The notes under the pieces were generated by a model, which worked only from the letters and a program-made list of their open reading frames with translations, was not told the DNA's origin and ran no database searches. A DNA stretch of 64,000 bases from Escherichia phage ECD7. Location: sequence record NC_041936.1; one strand, 5' to 3'. This document shows positions 3,205 to 56,464 of this stretch, piece by piece. Made by a program: the position numbers and the translations under genes. How positions within the stretch are numbered: the first letter of the stretch is position 1; every line of letters starts with the position of its first letter.

Positions 3205-5028
3205 TTATGATTGCATCCAAATTTTTCGGCGGTCTGAATCTTCGCTATAGAGCAAATCGAATAGCTCTTTATAGTTTTCCGGTAACGTGATGATTTCCAT
3301 TACAGGATCGTTGATCACGCGATGATAATCTGATTCTGTAAGAGATGCTAACCCTTTGATATATCGAATGCTATAACCTTTGATATTATCTCGGTCGTTC
3401 TCGAAATCTTCTAGGTCATAATACCATCGAACATCATCACCTTTCTTTGGTTCCGCAATGATAATAGGTGTTTTGATAAACCGGATTCGTCCATCTTCGA
3501 ACAATTCAGGCCAACGTGCAAAGAAAGAGATCAGACTAGGTTTAATAGACCCGATCCCGTCAGTATCAGCGTCGGTCATAATCGCAATATTTTTGTATTG
3601 CATAACTTCCAATGCATCAACACCAAATTGCAAGCCAGTGATCGCCATGATGTTAAAAATTTCGGCGTTCTTAACGATCTTTGCCTCCGGTTGTTCCCAC
3701 GTTGTAAGAGTTTTGCCTCGCAACGGGAAACCTCCATGTAAATCTGGATCACGTACAGAGACCAGATAGTTGATCGCGGAATCACCTTCCGTCAAAAACA
3801 GGGTAGTTTCTGCGTCAGTTCCAATAAGGTTAGCTTTAACGTGTTTTGCTACCTTAGCCCGTTTCGCTGCTTTTGCTGCCTTAGTCGCTGCCGCTTTATC
3901 TGCTGCCTCTTTGCGTGCCAGGACTACAGCAATAATAGGCATGATAATGTTTTCTTTCTTCGCAATGACTTTAGCCAGCTTTTTAAAATCAAGATCAATA
4001 TGACGCTTGATATCACCAGTTGGATTAGTCAATCGTTCTTTTGTCTGTGAATCAAAACGGAGGTTTGGCAATTCACGAACAATAAGAATACAGGTCAATC
4101 CAGACTTAACCGCCGCTTTAGTAACATCAACCTTATGTTCTTTCTTGATTCGTTTTACAATCTCTTCACAAAGATCATCTATCACGTAGTCTACGTGTGT
4201 TCCCCCGTTTTTGGTAAACAGACCATTAGCAAAGGATACTGATTTAAAACCTTCTCCCTCGACCGCAGGAACTAGGGCAAGTGAAAAGTTTTTATCTTCA
4301 ATGACAAACGGATCATCATTGTATAGTTTAGCATAATCCTTGAACTTACTAACAATACGTTTACCATTAAACTTAAACGTGATCTTAGGAAAGATTACGC
4401 TCAATGATTGCAGACGGTCATGAACAATATCTAAAACAGAGTTGTCCATCATATAACCTTCGAAGTGGTCAAAGTCTGGACAAAATGTAACCTTCGTTCC
4501 CTTCAATTTTGATGGTTTTGATGACCATGTGATATTTTCAGCACCATTTGTGCATTGAACGGTCATTTCTGTTTCACCGTCACAAGTTACACCAGTAAAC
4601 CAATCGCTAAAGAAATTTGACAACGACGACCCCACACCGTTCATCCCTTGCGTTAATCGATTTGTATCATCAAAGTTAGATCCGGCCTTTGTTCGTGTCC
4701 ATGCGGCTACAGGTTGCGGAATCTGCGTACCCTCTGGAGTAGTAACCATATGTTGAGGAATACCGCGACCATTGTCTGTTACCGTAACAATATTGTTTTG
4801 GATATCTACGCTAATCACATTGGCAAATTCAAAATTAGTGCGGATCGCCTCGTCTACAGAGTTGTCGATGATCTCATCAATGATTTTAACCAGCCCAGGA
4901 ACATATGAAATTTTTGTCCATTTACCGAACAGGAAACGTTGATGTTCTTCGTAAGTTGTTGATCCTATATACATTCCTGCACGCTTAAGGACATGTTCAC
5001 GATCAGATAAAATGCGAAACTCACTCAT
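3205..5028 (-). CDS. 39: DNA topoisomerase II large subunit, fused gp39/gp60 form (GyrB-like ATPase)
   Basis: 607 aa; strong resemblance to T4 gp39 N-terminus (ILSDxEH, GMYIGS, VPGLVK, DNGRGIP) continuing through the region that is gp60 in T4. Confidence 0.93.
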   Translation of the reverse strand: MSEFRILSDREHVLKRAGMYIGSTTYEEHQRFLFGKWTKISYVPGLVKIIDEIIDNSVDEAIRTNFEFANVISVDIQNNIVTVTDNGRGIPQHMVTTPEGTQIPQPVAAWTRTKAGSNFDDTNRLTQGMNGVGSSLSNFFSDWFTGVTCDGETEMTVQCTNGAENITWSSKPSKLKGTKVTFCPDFDHFEGYMMDNSVLDIVHDRLQSLSVIFPKITFKFNGKRIVSKFKDYAKLYNDDPFVIEDKNFSLALVPAVEGEGFKSVSFANGLFTKNGGTHVDYVIDDLCEEIVKRIKKEHKVDVTKAAVKSGLTCILIVRELPNLRFDSQTKERLTNPTGDIKRHIDLDFKKLAKVIAKKENIIMPIIAVVLARKEAADKAAATKAAKAAKRAKVAKHVKANLIGTDAETTLFLTEGDSAINYLVSVRDPDLHGGFPLRGKTLTTWEQPEAKIVKNAEIFNIMAITGLQFGVDALEVMQYKNIAIMTDADTDGIGSIKPSLISFFARWPELFEDGRIRFIKTPIIIAEPKKGDDVRWYYDLEDFENDRDNIKGYSIRYIKGLASLTESDYHRVINDPVMEIITLPENYKELFDLLYSEDSDRRKIWMQS

Positions 5029-9095: not shown

Positions 9096-9599
9096 TTAAA
9101 TTAAAGAAAATTTGTAAATCTCTATCAGATCGCCGTTACACGCGTAAACTTCCTCGATCTCATCAAGGATCATGGTCGTCCCTGTCTTGTATATGCACTC
9201 TCGCTCATCTGCCAACATAGCATACAAAGACAGTCGAGTAGTCGGATTGTCATACTCTTTAGACACCACTCGGTCAATAGCATGTTCGTAATAATTCATG
9301 CAAGGCTTGGTAGGTTTTATTGCAATAATCTTTCCTGTTGCATAAACATCGGTTGCAAAGTCCTCTGCTGTTGATTGCAGTGGCGTAAAGCTCATAGGAC
9401 GCTCTACAACGAAAGAATCACCTACAATTAAGGTATCCAGCTTACGGCCTTCTCTTTTGCTCACACCGCGATACAAGGCTTCATGATGCACTAACCGTTC
9501 AGTCTTTTCGATCAATCCATTAAGGATCGACATATCGATATTTTCTTTAGAGTTCATCACTTCATCAATGATGTTAAGTTCTTCTGGTGTAAATTGCAT
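9096..9599 (-). CDS. ADP-ribosyltransferase (ModA/ModB-like)
   Basis: 167 aa; R (LYRG), S-T-x (QSTAE) and E-x-E (ERE) motifs in the order expected for R-S-E ARTs; T4 modA/modB position. Confidence 0.55.
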   Translation of the reverse strand: MQFTPEELNIIDEVMNSKENIDMSILNGLIEKTERLVHHEALYRGVSKREGRKLDTLIVGDSFVVERPMSFTPLQSTAEDFATDVYATGKIIAIKPTKPCMNYYEHAIDRVVSKEYDNPTTRLSLYAMLADERECIYKTGTTMILDEIEEVYACNGDLIEIYKFSLI

Positions 9600-49359: not shown

Positions 49360-49758
49360 TTAAGCCAATCGAGTGAGTTTATAAATTGTTTTAAAGCATA
49401 GAGCTTTGATATCGTCTAAAACGCTCTGTAACGAGCTATCAACATCATTATAAATCTCACTAGCCATTTGCGTTAACTCTTGCAAATAGGCAATTTCGCT
49501 CATCTCCTTGCGGACGACCAACGTTGGCTGATAACGACCAGTGATCCCAATATTGGTTTCAGTGAAATCATCAACCAATTCTTGCATTTCAAGATAGAAC
49601 TCTTCTAGAGCCTTATGTTTTGCATAAGATCCAGGACCAGTTACCCCAAAATGCGCAGAATGCATATAAGTAACACTCATCAGACATTCACCGATAAAGC
49701 GGTCAACTTTATTAGCTTTCCCCTCTTCGGACGTCTTTCGAAAATCACTGAATTTCAT
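49360..49758 (-). CDS. hypothetical protein
   Basis: Internal ATG 49756-49758 (MKFSDFRK...) with GGAGAA SD. Confidence 0.45.
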   Translation of the reverse strand: MKFSDFRKTSEEGKANKVDRFIGECLMSVTYMHSAHFGVTGPGSYAKHKALEEFYLEMQELVDDFTETNIGITGRYQPTLVVRKEMSEIAYLQELTQMASEIYNDVDSSLQSVLDDIKALCFKTIYKLTRLA

Positions 49759-50047
49759 GTTCTCGATTCTCCATATTATGCAACATAACAAACTGTTGTG
49801 CGGCATATTCCCCCATAATAAAACACTGCTTAGAATCCATACATTTACTACGAGCATACATCTTCATAATATGGGCATGAAATTTCTGGCTGGTTTCAAT
49901 GGAAGGAGATATTTTGTTTACATATACTATCATTGCACCGTCGAAATAATCAGTAAAGTCACCAGTTGGATCATATTGATCAGCACTGACACTTCCGACC
50001 GCAGTCAAGCATATTGCCGCTGTTAGAGTTTTACGAATAAATGACAT
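49745..50047 (-). CDS. secreted protein with N-terminal signal peptide
   Basis: MSFIRKTLTAAICLTAVGSVSA signal-like N-terminus; late promoter and SD-sequestering hairpin upstream. Confidence 0.5.
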   Translation of the reverse strand: MSFIRKTLTAAICLTAVGSVSADQYDPTGDFTDYFDGAMIVYVNKISPSIETSQKFHAHIMKMYARSKCMDSKQCFIMGEYAAQQFVMLHNMENREHEIQ

Positions 50048-50115: not shown

Positions 50116-50712
50116 TTATTTGGTAGTACCGTCAATAAAATGTTTACGGCACACAGAGACATATTTATCCTCTGCACCAACTTCTATTTGAGCACCATCG
50201 CGAATAACATTACCCTCTTTATCTACACGAAGGACCATTGTTGCTTTCTTGCCACAATGACAAATACCCTTCATTTCGACCAGTTTATCAGCAAATGCCA
50301 TTAATGCCGCAGATCCTTCAAATAGATTGCCCTGAAAGTCGGTGCGAAGGCCATAGCACAGTACAGGGATATTTGCATCATCGACAAGCGCACACAAGCC
50401 TAAAACATGCTCTTTAGTCATAAATTGGGCTTCATCTACAAATACAGCATCAGGACGCCATCGATCCGGTCTACGCTTACCTAACGATTCACGATAAACC
50501 AAATCGAAAAGATCATCCGATTTAGTGAAGGTGATCGCTGGAGCACTTAGACCAATTCGGGAAACAACTTCACTTTCTGAATCTCGATTATCAATCGCTG
50601 GCTTAAGAATTAATACTCGCATATCACGTTCGGTATAGTTATAAGCACTTTGTAACAGAGAAGTTGATTTGCCAGCGTTCATAGATGCATAGTAGAAATA
50701 TAGTTGCGCCAT
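50116..50712 (-). CDS. tk: thymidine kinase
   Basis: YFYYASMNAGKST Walker A, Zn-ribbon CxxC...CxxH at C-terminus; 198 aa. Confidence 0.9.
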   Translation of the reverse strand: MAQLYFYYASMNAGKSTSLLQSAYNYTERDMRVLILKPAIDNRDSESEVVSRIGLSAPAITFTKSDDLFDLVYRESLGKRRPDRWRPDAVFVDEAQFMTKEHVLGLCALVDDANIPVLCYGLRTDFQGNLFEGSAALMAFADKLVEMKGICHCGKKATMVLRVDKEGNVIRDGAQIEVGAEDKYVSVCRKHFIDGTTK

Positions 50713-51005
50713 TAATTAATCTCCAAAAATCCAGCAAGACCTAAACCGATATAAGTCCAGATACAAAGGAAAAAGAAGCAAACACCCATAGCAAAGATAA
50801 ATCCGCGTAGTGTCTTTGGATAACCTACCCAATATTCCCGACCATCTTCTAACCGGATCAACTTATTGCCTTGCGAGTCCATATCAACTACAACATGTTT
50901 ATTTCGAGATTGCAATAGATATTGTTTTACAATCTCTACACCCGCCATAATAACAATAACGAAAATAAAAGTCCACACAACAAGATTAATGATAGTCTCA
51001 AGCAT
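50712..51005 (-). CDS. hypothetical membrane protein (two predicted TM helices)
   Basis: 97 aa, hydrophobic N- and C-terminal segments. Confidence 0.45.
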   Translation of the reverse strand: MLETIINLVVWTFIFVIVIMAGVEIVKQYLLQSRNKHVVVDMDSQGNKLIRLEDGREYWVGYPKTLRGFIFAMGVCFFFLCIWTYIGLGLAGFLEIN

Positions 51006-51240
51006 TTTCTATCACCTCCACCCAATCAGGTGTTTCCTGAAAGACTCCTTCACCTTCATGATGGTCGCAACCTTTATTGCTGCAATACATCCACCAATCC
51101 CACATTCCCCACGGTAAACGCTGCATATCGTCGTTACAGCAAGTGAAGATGATAGGCCAACCACATCTACCACAACGGCAGTTTTCCTTCATGTGTGCGG
51201 TATTAGGCTTCTTCATAGATGACTCCAATATAATCGACAT
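50998..51240 (-). CDS. Cys-rich small protein
   Basis: CRCGRCGW...CCND...CSNKGCDHHEGEG. Confidence 0.4.
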   Translation of the reverse strand: MSIILESSMKKPNTAHMKENCRCGRCGWPIIFTCCNDDMQRLPWGMWDWWMYCSNKGCDHHEGEGVFQETPDWVEVIENA

Positions 51241-51407
51241 TTACATTTAGGGCAATGCGGTTCTTTAATATAATACCCGTCTGTCTTTGGAACACTAACA
51301 GGAGCGGTTTTTATATTGTATTCAGTGAAACAACGAAAACAAGTTACGTTTTCTACAGACTGACGTTTCACCCAATCACCGGAATATAGATCATTTTTAT
51401 TTGTCAT
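51213..51407 (-). CDS. zinc-ribbon-like small protein
   Basis: CFRCF...CPKCKC; probable internal ATG at 51405-51407. Confidence 0.4.
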   Translation of the reverse strand: MTNKNDLYSGDWVKRQSVENVTCFRCFTEYNIKTAPVSVPKTDGYYIKEPHCPKCKCRLYWSHL

Positions 51408-51852
51408 ATTCAACCACCACAATGTTAATGTCTGGAGTAGCAATATTAATGATCTCTTCTACACATTCCCACTCAAGGCCACCGATACCGCAACCGATTT
51501 TAGGAATATAGAAAGGCTGTATAGCACCCTCAAAAACATCATTGAGAGACTCAAATCCTTTCAGGATAGCACCATATTCAGCATTTGGACCCGGTCGGAA
51601 TTTGGTATAGAGATTCACCCCGCACCAGTTATAACCATTAACTTGATGCGTCCAGACACTAAACCCACCCAGCTTTTCGACCTTACCGCGAGAAGTTTGC
51701 TTGTCAATCTCTAACGCTTGCGGGAACTCTTTCGCGATCTTCGCAGCAATACCAGCGCCCATAGTATGAAAACAATTACAACCATGAATTAAATGACCGT
51801 TTCCTTGTTTAAACAGGGCGATGAGATCGCCCTTTACAGTATCAATAATCAT
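51397..51852 (-). CDS. macro-domain protein (ADP-ribose binding/processing)
   Basis: GDLIAL...LIHGCNCFHTMGAGIAAKIAKEFP and later IGCGIGGL resemble the macro-domain ligand-binding loops. Confidence 0.65.
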   Translation of the reverse strand: MIIDTVKGDLIALFKQGNGHLIHGCNCFHTMGAGIAAKIAKEFPQALEIDKQTSRGKVEKLGGFSVWTHQVNGYNWCGVNLYTKFRPGPNAEYGAILKGFESLNDVFEGAIQPFYIPKIGCGIGGLEWECVEEIINIATPDINIVVVEYDK

Positions 51853-51867
51853 AATATAAACCTCTCA

Positions 51868-52227
51868 TTAGTCACGGGAAGACAACCCAGCCATAAAACG
51901 GCTTAACAGTGTGTCGCGATAAGCAAAGCATAATTGCTTATCAGGAGCAGTATCACACAAGTTGCGTTTTGTTTTAGCAAAGCTGGCAATACTCAGATCC
52001 CATGCTCGATTTTTTCGTTTTTCGTCTCGACCTTGTTTGTATGCTTCATCAAGTTCGAGCGCGATAAAATCACTACACATGTTATCATCATCACAGAAAG
52101 TTTTAATGATCTTTTTGTTGATCTCAAATCCTTTGTATTCAAACTTTGGATAAGGGCGCTCATTACTAGCAAGCGCACCAGCAGAGAACATCATAGCAAT
52201 CATAGCAATTATTGTCAACTTTTTCAT
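51868..52227 (-). CDS. secreted/periplasmic Cys-containing protein
   Basis: Signal peptide MKKLTIIAMIAMMFSAGALA; four Cys in mature part. Confidence 0.5.
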   Translation of the reverse strand: MKKLTIIAMIAMMFSAGALASNERPYPKFEYKGFEINKKIIKTFCDDDNMCSDFIALELDEAYKQGRDEKRKNRAWDLSIASFAKTKRNLCDTAPDKQLCFAYRDTLLSRFMAGLSSRD

Positions 52228-52234
52228 ATATTCC

Positions 52235-52825
52235 TCAATAGCGTTTAGTCTTAAGAATGCCTTTACTCTTTAGATGGTTAGCCTTTTTTAGTACGTCATC
52301 AGCATAACCTAATCCGGCTTTATAGTTCCATCCAGCATTGTAAGAAGCTAGCGCGAGTCTGATATTACCGTTTCGAATATCCAGCCAGTATGCTAACTCA
52401 TCCATCGCGTAGAATGCAGAAACCTCGCGATTCATGATAAAGTTGATAGTCTGGCGATCACTCATTTTAACACCGCGCTTTGCATTTTTCGCTTTCACCG
52501 TTTTAAGGTAATTTTGAAATAATCCATAAGCATGATGATTTTTCTTTGGTGCTAAGTTTGCACCCGCGCTTGATTCTTGCCATGCGATACCCGCCAGGAT
52601 GTGACCTAAACCCTTTCCGTTATAGCGAATATTCGGATGGTACTTTTTCAACTTACCGCTTTTCTCAAATTGCTCGCCGTATTGATAGGCGAAATGTAAA
52701 TTATCTAGTTGGTGTGCTGTAAAGTTGTCTATCGGCGCTTTTTTGATCGGTGCGCTAGTCGATGCGTGTGTAGCACCAACGGCTAGTGACAGACTCAATA
52801 CTATCGCTTTTAGAACTTTTAACAT
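52235..52825 (-). CDS. lytic transglycosylase (SLT domain) with Sec signal peptide
   Basis: Signal peptide MLKVLKAIVLSLSLAVGATHA; SLT motifs AWQESS, YGLFQ, ASYNAGW. Confidence 0.75.
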   Translation of the reverse strand: MLKVLKAIVLSLSLAVGATHASTSAPIKKAPIDNFTAHQLDNLHFAYQYGEQFEKSGKLKKYHPNIRYNGKGLGHILAGIAWQESSAGANLAPKKNHHAYGLFQNYLKTVKAKNAKRGVKMSDRQTINFIMNREVSAFYAMDELAYWLDIRNGNIRLALASYNAGWNYKAGLGYADDVLKKANHLKSKGILKTKRY

Positions 52826-52859
52826 TAATTTCTCCTGTTTGGCTTAACTTTCTGATTTC

Positions 52860-52890
52860 ATAATATAGCCCTATCACCAGAAAGTCAAGC
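52860..52890 (-). promoter_or_regulatory. sigma70-type early promoter driving the SLT operon
   Basis: Minus: TTGACT-17nt-TATTAT then CAGGAGAAATTA-ATG. Confidence 0.55.
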
Positions 52891-52911: not shown

Positions 52912-53334
52912 TTATTGGTCTACCTTCAAAACAACCGCCGACATTTTACCCGCCAGTCGTTTTGGATTCTCTATAATCATTCGGCAGCATAGACCGTGAT
53001 ATGGCTTACCCTCTTCGATTAGATCTACTGTCATCCCGATCCACATGTTACCATCAGTAATTTCTAATCGATTAGGTCGGTTTTCCATTTTCAGGAAGTC
53101 GAAGATCTCCGGCAAACGAGTTTCTATCTTATTGAATAGTTCCATTGTCTTATGTTCATCGATATGACGATCGGTTAGACGGTCGATCATATGCGGACTA
53201 AAGCGAATGAAAATATACTCGCCGTAACCATCATTCAAGCACTTTTCTTTGATCTGCGCATTGGTTTTGCGCATTTCGGTTTCGAAGAATCTACGCAGCT
53301 TACTACGGCGAACATGTACGTTAATTGTTTCCAT
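52912..53334 (-). CDS. regB: RegB site-specific endoribonuclease
   Basis: VHVRRSKLRRFFE, RLEITDGNMWIGMTV, CRMIIENPKRLAGK resemble T4 RegB; ATG 53332-53334. Confidence 0.85.
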   Translation of the reverse strand: METINVHVRRSKLRRFFETEMRKTNAQIKEKCLNDGYGEYIFIRFSPHMIDRLTDRHIDEHKTMELFNKIETRLPEIFDFLKMENRPNRLEITDGNMWIGMTVDLIEEGKPYHGLCCRMIIENPKRLAGKMSAVVLKVDQ

Positions 53335-53338
53335 TTTA

Positions 53339-53674
53339 TTATCCTTTCTTAAACAAATTGCGAATCCAGTATACAAACGGGATCTCTTTAAACTTGAATT
53401 TCTCTATAGTTAATTCTTTAGTAGCAAGATGAATACCATAAGCATCATGTGTCACGATATGCCATTTTCTATAGTCCAAATGTGAACAACCGTCTGGATC
53501 TAGGTTAATAAGAGTTTCTCGCTCACTAGGATTATTTTTCCACAATTTTGTAATAGGATCGCACATAATTCGACCTAGCGTACCATGAATAATCTCACAA
53601 CGGTAAAGTTTTCCAGCAGTGAGATAGGCGCACCCGTCATAGTCGGTATAAACAAACACTTCTTTAACACTCAT
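53339..53674 (-). CDS. small paralog-family protein (GC[SA]HL..W motif)
   Basis: Internal ATG with GGAGTA SD; ...DPDGCSHLDYRKWHIV. Confidence 0.45.
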   Translation of the reverse strand: MSVKEVFVYTDYDGCAYLTAGKLYRCEIIHGTLGRIMCDPITKLWKNNPSERETLINLDPDGCSHLDYRKWHIVTHDAYGIHLATKELTIEKFKFKEIPFVYWIRNLFKKG

Positions 53675-53696
53675 TTTAATACTCCTTTGTTTCGAT

Positions 53697-53732
53697 GGGG
53701 GTATATTACTACCCCCGTTTTGTTGTGTCAAC
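53697..53732 (-). promoter_or_regulatory. sigma70-type early promoter (PeSL-like, GGGGGTA stem-loop)
   Basis: Minus: TTGACA-17nt-TAATAT. Confidence 0.55.
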
Positions 53733-53992
53733 TACTTTTTCAAGATTTTTTTAATTGCGTTCCAAAGACCTTTATTCTCAGGTTGTTTTGGTTCTTCGAT
53801 CAGTGTCCATGTTCGACCGTCTAAGTGTGCACAATTTTTAAGACAAATAAAAATCTGGTGTCCATTATCATCACGGATATAACCACTATTCGCAAATCTT
53901 TCATGTGGTGTATATTCATACAGTGTATTTGGTGTAATATACTTGCGGTTACTATAAGGTGTCATTACATATTTCATGGTACTAACTCCCAT
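53732..53992 (-). CDS. small paralog-family protein
   Basis: ...CLKNCAHLDGRTWTLIEEP. Confidence 0.45.
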   Translation of the reverse strand: MGVSTMKYVMTPYSNRKYITPNTLYEYTPHERFANSGYIRDDNGHQIFICLKNCAHLDGRTWTLIEEPKQPENKGLWNAIKKILKK

Positions 53993-54168
53993 TTATCACC
54001 GCGAAGATGAGAACATCCACCATCAAGAAGGATCGTAATACGAAACCCCGCATCATCTTCAATATACCCGATTGTCGGTGGATTTTCGTCGTCTCGTGCC
54101 GGGGTAAAATCATACATCTTTCCCGGTGTGATATCATTGCCTTTATTGCTATTGGTATAAACTTGCAT
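53974..54168 (-). CDS. small paralog-family protein
   Basis: ...LLDGGCSHLRGDKWELVP. Confidence 0.45.
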   Translation of the reverse strand: MQVYTNSNKGNDITPGKMYDFTPARDDENPPTIGYIEDDAGFRITILLDGGCSHLRGDKWELVP

Positions 54169-54888: not shown

Positions 54889-54933
54889 AATTAAACCCTC
54901 AGTTGATTAAGAGATTGCATCATATCATCATAA

Positions 54934-54963
54934 AACGAAAAAGCCAACCCTTTTCGGATTGGC
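54934..54963 (-). terminator. intrinsic terminator after the GrcA-like gene
   Basis: Minus: GCCAAUCC-gaaaag-GGUUGGC then UUUUUCGUUUU. Confidence 0.6.
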
Positions 54964-54974
54964 TTGATGAAAAA

Positions 54975-56074: not shown

Positions 56075-56464
56075 TTATTTTGGATCTGGGTATTTGCTGT
56101 GTGGTAGCTGAAAATGAACACCGTCTTTAAACGATACCCAATCCCCACCCCATTCAACAGAAACACCCAATTCTCGACCAGCTTGTTTAAATGCATCCGC
56201 GATCATGCGGTAGTATTTCATGTTCCATGTATCCTTATCTTTCGGATACGCTACAACGTCAACCGCTAAACCGTGAAGATGACGAGATTTCATAGTCTTA
56301 GATTTACCTTCCGCAACATATTTCTTTTGCGTTTCTAGACTACGTACACCTTCCGTAATACCAAAATCGACCGGAGTCAGTTCTAATGCACGATGAACGA
56401 CTTTTACCAGATCAGGATGCACACCAACAAGCCGATCTTTGCTTCTTTGAGATAATTTAAACAT
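56075..56464 (-). CDS. endolysin, L-alanyl-D-glutamate peptidase (peptidase M15-like)
   Basis: SRHLHGLAVDV and DGVHFQL zinc-ligand motifs; 129 aa; occupies the T4 e (lysozyme) neighbourhood. Confidence 0.8.
   Translation of the reverse strand: MFKLSQRSKDRLVGVHPDLVKVVHRALELTPVDFGITEGVRSLETQKKYVAEGKSKTMKSRHLHGLAVDVVAYPKDKDTWNMKYYRMIADAFKQAGRELGVSVEWGGDWVSFKDGVHFQLPHSKYPDPK

Follow-up and report, generated by a model that had tools for sequence, protein, structure and literature searches.

Why would a large virulent phage remodel the wall of its host long before lysis, and why should the gene next to the presumed wall-cutting enzyme encode a protein that looks exported and yet bears the name of a cytoplasmic factor (valyl-tRNA synthetase modifier)? 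We explore these questions at the vs.1-vs-tk.4 locus of Escherichia phage ECD7 (sequence record NC_041936.1; all positions refer to the window, i.e. the whole analysed stretch of 64,000 nucleotides). The source of the window is an RB49-like Krischvirus, and its DNA is 98-99% identical to the deposited RB49, GEC-3S and MIZ6 genomes, in which vs.1, vs and tk.4 are already annotated. We consider it probable that this early block combines two unrelated functions, a periplasmic Vs.1-Vs pair and a cytoplasmic anti-defence protein (Tk.4). The gene identities, the conservation of folds and motifs, the signal-like N-termini, the invariant cysteines, the synteny and the coupling stem from the present analysis; for the T4 orthologues, the literature supplied the time at which their mRNAs appear (early), the phenotype against DarTG2 and the fitness measurements.

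An earlier note on this DNA had described an early operon of three genes, and the corresponding open reading frames were all found where it had placed them, on the minus strand: vs.1 (52235..52825; 196 aa), coding for a predicted exported lytic transglycosylase of SLT fold (Glu84, GLFQ 101-104, SYNAG 161-165); vs (51868..52227; 119 aa), coding for a predicted exported protein that relatives' annotation calls "valyl-tRNA synthetase modifier"; and tk.4 (51397..51852; 151 aa), an AdfM orthologue coding for a free-standing macrodomain of the DarG/TARG1 class in which the catalytic Lys84 is kept. The regB endoribonuclease gene (52912..53376, minus strand; Pfam REGB_T4, 2.3e-48) lies immediately upstream of vs.1. 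Downstream of the macro gene the Pfam matches and the ORF list returned, as noted, two small Cys-rich ORFs with zinc-binding domains (about 51213-51443, or to 51407, Pfam Phage_zn_bind_2, 1.8e-23; and 50998 to about 51216/51240, Pfam Phage_zn_bind, 8.8e-34; both also by RB49 annotation), a 97-aa membrane ORF with two TM segments (50712..51005; ORF list, hydropathy, PHROG 16027) and the thymidine kinase gene tk (50116..50712; Pfam TK, 9.6e-52), all on the minus strand. The gene of the periplasmic antiholin, rI, is situated just downstream of tk. The order (regB > vs.1 > vs > tk.4 > small ORFs > tk) is that of the T4-family early region. What had been presented as a new operon is hence not newly seen: vs.1, vs and tk.4 are RB49-type copies of catalogued T4-family early genes, annotated long since, and both the SLT similarity of the vs.1 orthologues (RB49 included; 2003/2006) and the A1pp/macro similarity of tk.4 (2006) have been published. 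The claimed early expression agrees with the T4 orthologues, whose mRNAs are all early (vs.1, vs and tk.4 being classed as early RNA, middle protein). No terminator separates regB from vs.1 (the intrinsic terminator scan found none between the two genes), and the only strong ones predicted are those at about 54965-54941 and 49129-49104. The three genes, as neighbours of unrelated function, form part of a longer early transcription unit and not a single functional operon. A PeSL-type stem-loop that would end transcription ahead of vs.1 was considered as well and set aside, the scan being empty there.

The promoter that had been proposed to drive the block (TTGACT-17-TATTAT) was recovered by the promoter scan at 52888..52860 on the minus strand (10/12 matches), as a sigma70/RB49-type early promoter-like site with an A/T-rich tract (AAAAATAAT) upstream, from which transcription would start near 52853. 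As 38 promoter-like sites were counted in the region, where shuffled sequence gave 24.9 +/- 4.8, a hexamer match by itself is weak evidence; this site, however, gains support from its intergenic position (within the 86-bp regB-vs.1 spacer), from the A/T-rich upstream tract and from a layout that agrees with published RB49 early promoters (G at -33, A-rich -40 to -44). Its sigma70-like boxes, taken with the upstream tract, place it in the RB49-type class, and it is identical in RB49. The block would thus be transcribed from host-type early promoters that include this one, and probably also by read-through from upstream. A further promoter-like site (TTGACA-17-TATGAT, 52190..52218, minus strand; 11/12 matches in the scan, TG upstream of the second hexamer) sits within the codons of the Vs signal peptide. 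It may have arisen by chance; were it functional, tk.4 and the genes beyond it would be expressed without vs. In the leader, the GGAG Shine-Dalgarno of vs.1 (52832..52835, minus strand), with A-rich sequence after it, is a possible target of RegB cleavage and partially matches the RegB consensus GG*AGRAYARAA (PMC3014915). That RegB control through GGAG is conserved was rejected, GAGG taking its place in T4 and in most relatives. As for the stable, often G/C-rich stem-loop that accompanies this promoter class in PeSL cassettes, the only inverted repeat picked out by eye upstream (ACCAAT...ATTGGT), neither folded nor scored, is weak (6 bp, A/T-rich).

The third protein is, as had been claimed, a macrodomain (Pfam Macro, 6.1e-07, 29.8 bits against a cut-off of 22), with the motif HGCNCFHTMGAGIAAKI at residues 23-39. 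Its best PDB match is the Mycobacterium tuberculosis DarG macrodomain (5m3i, 2.2e-08), followed by human TARG1 (7e-07), and it matches the DarG profiles of PADLOC (6.8e-16) and NCBIfam (NF048014; 1.5e-14, over profile positions 2-141 of 338 only). Tk.4 fails the DarG equivalog cut-off (54 bits vs 250) because the C-terminal, DarT-binding half of DarG is missing; by these profile matches it is not the antitoxin DarG itself but a macrodomain that stands alone. T83-K84 in Tk.4 lines up with the T-K pair in 5m3i and in TARG1 alike, which puts K84 at the position of the catalytic lysine (K84 in TARG1, K80 in DarG). Tk.4 is 44% identical to the syntenic T4 Tk.4, whose gene was named AdfM in 2025 as an anti-DarTG2 factor: the T4 tk.4 knockout was sensitised to DarTG2, and tk.4 was the single genome-wide hit under this system.

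These observations bear on the view put forward by the earlier note, namely that the locus is one functional early operon: Vs.1 would act in the exclusion of superinfecting phages or in the timing of lysis, and the macrodomain would take off the ADP-ribose that the phage's own Alt/Mod-type transferase attaches. We regard this view as very unlikely. While the promoter and the gene order are real, and rI is found just downstream of tk (and directly after the vs.1-vs cluster in Acinetobacter phages), tk.4 and vs.1-vs part company freely in evolution (Acinetobacter phages hold vs.1-vs without tk.4, and Muldoon has no tk.4), and rI insertions in T4 brought no LB-vs-M9 fitness change in the dataset in which those of vs and vs.1 did. 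The ADP-ribosyltransferase with which the macrodomain had been paired (ORF 9096-9599) holds by its PHROG match (RNA polymerase ADP-ribosylase, 1e-20) but has no Pfam match. The pairing itself gives way to the anti-defence alternative, which is preferred over erasure of the phage's own ADP-ribosylation on account of the DarG-like class of the domain and the anti-DarTG2 genetics of T4. The RB49-type Tk.4 is therefore best read as a DarT2 counter-defence (AdfM), which would remove ADP-ribose from thymidines of phage DNA modified by host DarT2 toxins, and this reading helps to predict the hosts that RB49-type therapeutic phages can overcome.

The first protein of the block matches SLT (Pfam PF01464; family-1 lytic transglycosylases, GH23) over residues 76-167, its score of 25.6 bits (E 9.6e-06) exceeding the gathering threshold of 21.3. 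Two of the three motifs that had been assigned to it are present as described (WQESS with E84, and GLFQ at 101-104), and the third, given as AYNAGW, actually reads SYNAGW (161-166). The catalytic glutamate thus lies in E84-S85, the GLxQ and xYNxG motifs are represented by G101-L-F-Q104 and S161-Y-N-A-G165, and E84, G101, S161, Y162 and G165 are invariant among the homologues aligned (23-25). The AF2 model is confident (pLDDT dropping to 51-64 over residues 1-30) and predicts a goose-type-lysozyme-like helical fold. A plain sequence search with Vs.1 against PDB gave no match; its structural neighbours include the g-type lysozyme (crystallised with PliG) and Tse3 (with Tsi3). Pfam, the motifs and the signal rule described below together support the claim of a predicted exported SLT-type muramidase that is separate from the cytoplasmic M15 endolysin, itself confirmed at 56075-56464 (Pfam Peptidase_M15_4, 2.8e-12; PHROG endolysin, 1.4e-67).

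The gene vs.1 is conserved across >2000 large virulent phage genomes and is kept whether the endolysin is a T4-type lysozyme or an M15 peptidase. This retention, together with the muramidase fold, the intact catalytic glutamate, the predicted signal peptide and the Felixounavirus homologues that are annotated as "putative lysin" near spanin genes, would suit an auxiliary, holin-independent lysis enzyme, i.e. a secreted second endolysin that weakens the wall in advance and hastens the final lysis. Such a role appears unlikely, as the T4 mRNA is early and not late, the gene is non-essential, all phages that bear Vs.1 have a separate canonical endolysin, and the literature reports no lysis phenotype for vs.1.

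Signal peptides were called by a home-made rule on n-, h- and c-regions (positive n-region, hydrophobic h-region of 10-15 residues, small-x-small cleavage site), which is crude and not a trained predictor; RI, the antiholin of T4 type, served as its positive control. Vs.1 carries a predicted Sec signal peptide at 52763..52825 (minus strand; MLKVLKAIVLSLSLAVGATHA then STS) that divides into MLKVLK/AIVLSLSLAVGA/THA, and Vs one at 52168..52227 (minus strand; MKKLTIIAMIAMMFSAGALA then SNE) that divides into MKK/LTIIAMIAMMFSAG/ALA, both with cleavage before S. The rule is passed by 24 of the 25 Vs.1 family members (the one failure looks N-terminally truncated and has no signal-like N-terminus) and by 44/45 of the Vs family, three members having a lipobox (L-S/L-G-C) instead. 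As a background, only 11/128 minus-strand and 0/51 plus-strand ORFs of the window pass; RI, known to be secreted, is flagged by the rule too. The N-terminus of Vs is disordered in the AF2 model. We infer from these N-termini that both Vs.1 and Vs are exported. The GenBank depositor of Acinetobacter phage Berthold independently noted a "putative periplasmic secretion signal" in its Vs homologue.

The second protein had been recognised as a secreted cysteine protein, which agrees with its exactly four cysteines (45, 51, 91 and 100) and with its predicted export (signal rule); what had been missed is its identity as Vs, the "valyl-tRNA synthetase modifier". The assignment comes from a full-length match to PHROG 1256 (1.8e-33) and from the precomputed PF26829 that the homologues carry, these two being the only profiles by which it is recognised (scans of Pfam, NCBIfam and PADLOC gave no match). 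The family is tiny: a set of 1.84 billion proteins contains just 28 representatives at 50% identity, none with a second domain; an exhaustive profile search found no domain fusions, the lone 513-aa match consisting of seven weak, low-complexity-like stretches. Across 45 sequences C45, C51, G66, C91, C100 and G114 are invariant. Mature Vs is predicted to be a four-helix bundle, and probably carries two disulfides once exported.

This picture is difficult to reconcile with the name. By the received reading, Vs is the cytoplasmic tau factor that binds host valyl-tRNA synthetase (ValRS), its N-terminus being non-exporting or its pool exported in part, and its adjacency to vs.1 is coincidental. In the classical work T4 vs+ reportedly stabilised a thermolabile ValRS in vivo, and the tau peptide is said to have measured ~10 kDa. 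The annotation is carried by T4, RB49, many relatives and PHROG 1256, and T4 lacking vs shows a plating defect that is specific to minimal medium, a condition under which the supply of amino acids counts (so interpreted by the authors of the screen). We nevertheless find the cytoplasmic reading doubtful. The signal-like N-terminus is kept in character, not in sequence, in 44/45 members, and the three lipoboxes are hard to square with the cytoplasm; the helical protein of ~95 aa holds four invariant cysteines; vs always lies directly downstream of the gene of a predicted exported enzyme, and is often translationally coupled to it; and full-length His-tagged T4 Vs was insoluble in E. coli. Moreover, the size of ~10-11 kDa suits a processed (exported) form, T4 Vs having predicted masses of 11.0 kDa (mature) and 13.1 kDa (precursor), and the original T4 sequence record lists the gene only as "ORF 60.9", which indicates that the name vs was attached to the ORF later. 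A literature search found no mention of a signal peptide of Vs or of periplasmic Vs. As a tentative alternative, we propose that Vs is an exported, disulfide-bonded periplasmic protein that forms, with Vs.1, a two-gene cell-wall module of the Straboviridae. If this were true, the minimal-medium defect of T4 vs would reflect envelope biology and not tRNA charging, and the assignment of the ORF to the tau factor would be wrong or incomplete.

The pairing is seen in gene order: vs is directly downstream of vs.1 in every vs-bearing locus examined (T4, Gelderlandvirus, Jiaodavirus, Karamvirus, Muldoonvirus, Lasallevirus, Lazarusvirus and Bragavirus), also where regB and tk.4 are missing, and the stop and start codons of the two genes overlap (ATAATG) in five of eight loci. 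Within Acinetobacter phages, vs.1-vs belongs to a series of genes for predicted secreted proteins, rI being the last. Tulanevirus, Slopekvirus, Emmerichvirinae, Ackermannviridae and Felixounavirus have Vs.1 but no Vs, from which it follows that Vs is not needed for Vs.1 function; a strict requirement was thus rejected.

T4 HIDEN-SEQ data (LB vs M9) show the mean reads of vs insertions falling from 26.6 to 5.0 (log2FC -2.19, q=0) and those of vs.1 from 22.6 to 11.9 (log2FC -0.87, p=0.0055), the latter change being non-significant after correction (q=0.155). Already in LB the reads of both genes are ~ten-fold below those of their neighbours (tk.4 290, regB 179, vs.3 652). Insertions in T4 vs.1 could owe their lower fitness to polarity on the coupled vs, and not to a common function. 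The earlier suggestion that the secreted neighbour is a partner or an inhibitor keeps its first half, given the adjacency, the stop/start overlap and the common fitness behaviour, whereas its second half is disfavoured by the T4 insertion fitness. If Vs kept Vs.1 in check in the periplasm, as an inhibitor or immunity protein (cf. PliG and Ivy, or Tsi3 for Tse3), its loss would be harmful by leaving Vs.1 unrestrained; this reading accords with the strongest depletion of vs insertions in M9, with two adjacent and coupled genes whose products are both predicted to be exported, and with the inhibitors that were crystallised on structural neighbours of Vs.1 (g-type lysozyme-PliG and Tse3-Tsi3). We give it little credence, since in T4 disrupting vs.1 costs as much fitness as disrupting vs.

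As we envisage the Vs.1-Vs module, with the muralytic chemistry of Vs.1, the purpose of wall cutting and a physical or functional link between the two proteins all put forward as inferences, Vs.1 would be exported through Sec, lose a signal peptide of ~21 residues and act as a small, soluble, family-1-like lytic transglycosylase, which, with Glu84 as acid catalyst, would cleave MurNAc-GlcNAc bonds in the sacculus of the host ahead of lysis, working from the periplasm. Vs would be its accessory partner or modulator, not its antidote, and the two would bring a modest fitness gain, larger in nutrient-poor cells.

Finding three already catalogued accessory genes of the T4 family once more, in an RB49-like phage, adds little by itself. 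The residual interest lies in the clash between the exported look of Vs and its name, along with the likely periplasmic Vs.1-Vs module: an early, exported-type transglycosylase common to >2000 large virulent phages shares a T4 fitness phenotype with a neighbour that textbooks place in the cytoplasm. Settling the conflict would either correct a long-standing annotation or reveal an odd protein of dual location, and would also raise the question of wall remodelling with which we began.

Compared with known systems, Tk.4 shares with T4 Tk.4/AdfM and the DarG macrodomain the Macro fold, the G-x-G-I-A and G-x-G-x-G-G-L-[DE]-W loops and the lysine in T-K; like DarG and unlike TARG1, it has a glycine where TARG1 has Asp125, and it is a free-standing domain (151 aa) as opposed to the two-domain DarG. 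T4 Vs.1 (ORF 61.4; PHROG 600) is the orthologue of the RB49-type Vs.1 (53% identity over 158 residues) and likewise has a signal-like N-terminus, the E-S, G-x-F-Q and S-Y-N-x-G motifs and a place between regB and vs; the RB49-type protein differs by ~13 additional linker residues after the signal peptide, and its gene by an 86-bp spacing from regB with a promoter of its own (7 bp in T4). T4 Vs (ORF 60.9; PF26829; PHROG 1256) is an orthologue by position and profile (27% identity, E 4e-08), equal in length and with a signal-like N-terminus and four cysteines in register, although very diverged in sequence; the cytoplasmic function given to it conflicts with the export features common to the whole family. 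With the bacterial family-1 lytic transglycosylases (the catalytic domains of Slt70, P. aeruginosa Slt, MltF, MltC and MltE, and the specialised EtgA) Vs.1 shares ~15-20% identity; unlike them it is a soluble phage protein, made early and no lipoprotein, which consists of one minimal domain (~175 residues when mature) and bears an N-terminal helix motif peculiar to its family (F-x3-Q-x-DNL-x-YAY-x-YGEQ). Vs has no sequence or fold likeness that we could find to the known transglycosylase partners and inhibitors (EscI, PliG, Ivy, Tsi3). The likeness to the EscI-EtgA activator pair and to the inhibitors PliG, Ivy and Tsi3 is one of concept, that of a small periplasmic protein beside an enzyme of lysozyme fold, and several proteins of this group have been crystallised together with enzymes that neighbour Vs.1 in structure.

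A 4-kb query around the three minus-strand genes vs.1 (52235-52825), vs (51868-52227) and tk.4 (51397-51852) matched 57 phage records at 90-99% identity, headed by MIZ6, GEC-3S and RB49 (Krischvirus, Straboviridae). The RB49 RefSeq record names the ORFs vs.1, vs ("valyl tRNA synthetase modifier") and tk.4 ("phosphatase; A1pp motif") and places them between regB and tk, and the order in T4 is identical (regB-vs.1-vs-tk.4-tk.3-tk.2-tk.1-tk-rI), the window products sharing 53% (Vs.1, E 1e-55), 27% (Vs, E 4e-08) and 44% (Tk.4, E 1e-44) identity with their T4 counterparts. The earlier note had described an early operon for an SLT-domain lytic transglycosylase, a secreted four-cysteine protein and a macro-domain protein; its ORFs, lengths and cysteines were recovered in the window sequence, as were the two Cys-rich ORFs, the membrane ORF and tk that it placed downstream, and all quoted motifs were present save for a single slip (AYNAGW, which reads SYNAGW). 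The present analysis establishes the gene identities, motifs, folds and synteny. Since the genes, their domain similarities and the function of tk.4 are already in the literature and GenBank annotation, we regard the finding as ordinary.

The promoter scan placed the proposed TTGACT-17-TATTAT promoter at 52888..52860 (10/12 matches). The region is rich in promoter-like sites (38 against 24.9 expected), and the hexamers by themselves are therefore little proof; the candidate is supported by its position in the 86-bp regB-vs.1 spacer, the A/T-rich tract upstream of it and its agreement with the layout described for RB49 early promoters (sigma70-like, with a G at -33 and an A-rich region from -40 to -44). 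RB49 is described as being without a recognised middle-promoter system, and the T4 orthologues of the three genes have early mRNAs and proteins classed as middle. Because zero terminators were detected in the regB-vs.1 interval and strong terminator-like hairpins were found only at 54965-54941 and 49129-49104, the three genes form part of an early unit that extends beyond them and has internal promoters, and that the second of these terminators (minus strand) probably ends. The hairpin at 54965-54941 (minus strand, G/C-rich, followed by a T-run) overlaps a promoter-like TTGGCT-17-TATGAT within 54919-54965, a terminator-promoter arrangement of the PeSL style described for RB49/phi1. A near-consensus, TG-extended site (TTGACA-17-TATGAT, 11/12 matches, 52190-52218, minus strand) falls within the codons for the predicted Vs signal peptide and, if active, would allow tk.4 and the downstream genes to be transcribed without vs. 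Upstream of regB lie three tandem small ORFs (53339-54168, minus strand; 130, 86 and 64 aa), paralogues with 29-36% identity and a common pattern (Y-x-T-P...G-Y-I-x-D-D-x-G...C-S-H-L-D-G-x-x-W-x-L); they had no Pfam match, and PHROG, scanned with the 130-aa ORF alone, returned one family without an assigned function.

Vs.1 matched Pfam SLT over threshold and gave a confident AF2 model (pLDDT 86.8), and alignments of 23-25 homologues showed Glu84 (WQESS), Gly101 (GLFQ) and Ser161-Tyr162-x-x-Gly165 to be invariant. A 2006 publication already noted the SLT similarity of vs.1, RB49 included, and credited it to the T4 genome review. The N-terminus starts with a basic n-region, continues with a hydrophobic stretch and reaches a predicted cleavage site at THA|S; of 25 family members, 24 passed our home-made n/h/c-region rule for Sec signal peptides (which passes the RI antiholin control and only 11 of 128 minus-strand ORFs of the window). 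The search for homologues gave 2084 phage records, among them Ackermannviridae and Felixounavirus, whose Vi01 and dune copies also bear signal-like N-termini. Such an enzyme might alternatively be an auxiliary lysis enzyme; the window does contain, as the earlier note had it, a separate M15 endolysin, and T4 does not require vs.1 for growth on LB plates.

The 119-aa Vs matched PHROG 1256 (its homologues carry PF26829), and an exhaustive profile search yielded only 28 representatives, which, save for one dubious match, are all of ~77-135 aa and single-domain. Across 45 sequences the four cysteines, Gly66 and Gly114 are invariant, while the first ~20 residues vary in sequence yet remain signal-like in 44, a lipobox (LSGC or LLGC) replacing the plain signal in three Karamvirus-type members. 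The AF2 model folds residues 28-117 into a four-helix bundle and leaves residues 1-27 below pLDDT 50; the predicted mature size is 11.6 kDa in the window and 11.0 kDa in T4 (vs at 4387-4734 of the compared locus L002). [quoted passage not shown] An independent GenBank remark by the depositor of Berthold assigns its homologue and neighbours a "putative periplasmic secretion signal", and the original T4 record of 1986 names the gene only "ORF 60.9". The literature searched made no mention of the clash between these features and the name.

Every vs-bearing locus examined (T4, Melville, KP179, VPA32, Muldoon, Acj61, Berthold and PM2) has vs directly downstream of vs.1, with a stop/start overlap (ATAATG) in five of eight phages and, in the window, a 7-nt gap, the SD lying over the stop codon. 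In Acinetobacter phages regB and tk.4 are gone from this locus but the pair remains, followed by two further predicted secreted ORFs and then rI. The dependence is one-way: vs.1 stands without vs in Tulanevirus, Slopekvirus, Emmerichvirinae, Ackermannviridae and Felixounavirus. In Proteus phage PM2 (L015:1204-1747) the match to vs.1 is split in two (the annotated ORF has only 99 aa), reflecting either a frameshifted gene or a sequencing error; vs and a third secreted gene are intact, which would make PM2 the sole case seen of vs lacking an intact vs.1. This third predicted secreted protein (~130-146 aa, with a conserved W-E-K-L-P-G-Y-P-like motif after its N-terminal signal) follows vs in Gelderlandvirus, Jiaodavirus, Karamvirus, Bragavirus and Acinetobacter phages (in the compared loci, L003:2824-3225, L004:2830-3255, L005:2740-3132, L007:2737-3156, L008:2830-3255 and L015:2080-2520), and is found neither in T4 nor in the window. 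The window encodes an rI antiholin orthologue with its own signal peptide just 3' of tk (49745-50047, minus strand; Pfam Antiholin 1.6e-23), and the position of rI directly after the secreted cluster in Acinetobacter phages hints at a common periplasmic theme.

Fitness data for T4 come from the supplement of the 2025 HIDEN-SEQ preprint (Extended Data Table 6, sheet S8; LB versus M9), the text of which treats vs only, not vs.1. Mean insertion reads fell from 26.6 in LB to 5.0 in M9 for vs (log2FC -2.19, q=0) and from 22.6 to 11.9 for vs.1 (log2FC -0.87, p=0.0055, q=0.155), and rose for regB (log2FC +1.17, p=0.049). Already in LB liquid, reads in both genes were about ten-fold under those of neighbouring non-essential genes (tk.4 290, regB 179, vs.3 652). 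The adjacency of the genes could also be read as Vs inhibiting Vs.1; the low vs.1 reads alongside those of vs speak against a simple enzyme-plus-antidote pair, and are what either a shared pathway or a polar effect of vs.1 insertions on vs would give.

As the most likely mechanism, we propose that early transcription from host-type promoters would supply the periplasm with two proteins and the cytoplasm with one enzyme. Exported Vs.1 would cut glycan strands of the sacculus via Glu84, and exported Vs, once oxidised to a disulfide-stapled helical bundle, may modulate or assist it; the benefit of the pair to the phage would be clearest when the medium is poor. The timing, the DarTG2 phenotype and the fitness data were shown in T4; we infer the export, the chemistry and the Vs.1-Vs link with its purpose.

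The earlier note offered superinfection exclusion, cell-wall remodelling or lysis timing as possible roles of the enzyme and took the macro domain, together with a "ModA-like" ART, to point to ADP-ribosylation writer/eraser functions; this exclusion-and-eraser reading is a further rival. The ART-like ORF exists (9096-9599, minus strand), has no Pfam match and aligns with the C-terminal part of the long profile PHROG 832 ("RNA polymerase ADP-ribosylase", 1e-20); nothing was found to link it with tk.4, which among the compared loci is gained and lost independently of vs.1-vs. Tk.4 itself matched Pfam Macro over threshold, and would strip the ADP-ribose that DarT2 puts on thymidines of phage DNA. 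In the 2025 preprint tk.4 alone among T4 genes was depleted in the presence of DarTG2, a result confirmed by knockout, and was named AdfM. The best solved relative is the DarG macrodomain of M. tuberculosis (5m3i, 2.2e-08), followed by human TARG1, and the alignment matches up the catalytic lysine of the T-K motif (K84) as well as the GxGxGGL[DE]W loop; as the DarG profiles (NCBIfam 1.5e-14, PADLOC 6.8e-16) cover the macrodomain half only, Tk.4 is a stand-alone macrodomain and not a DarG antitoxin.
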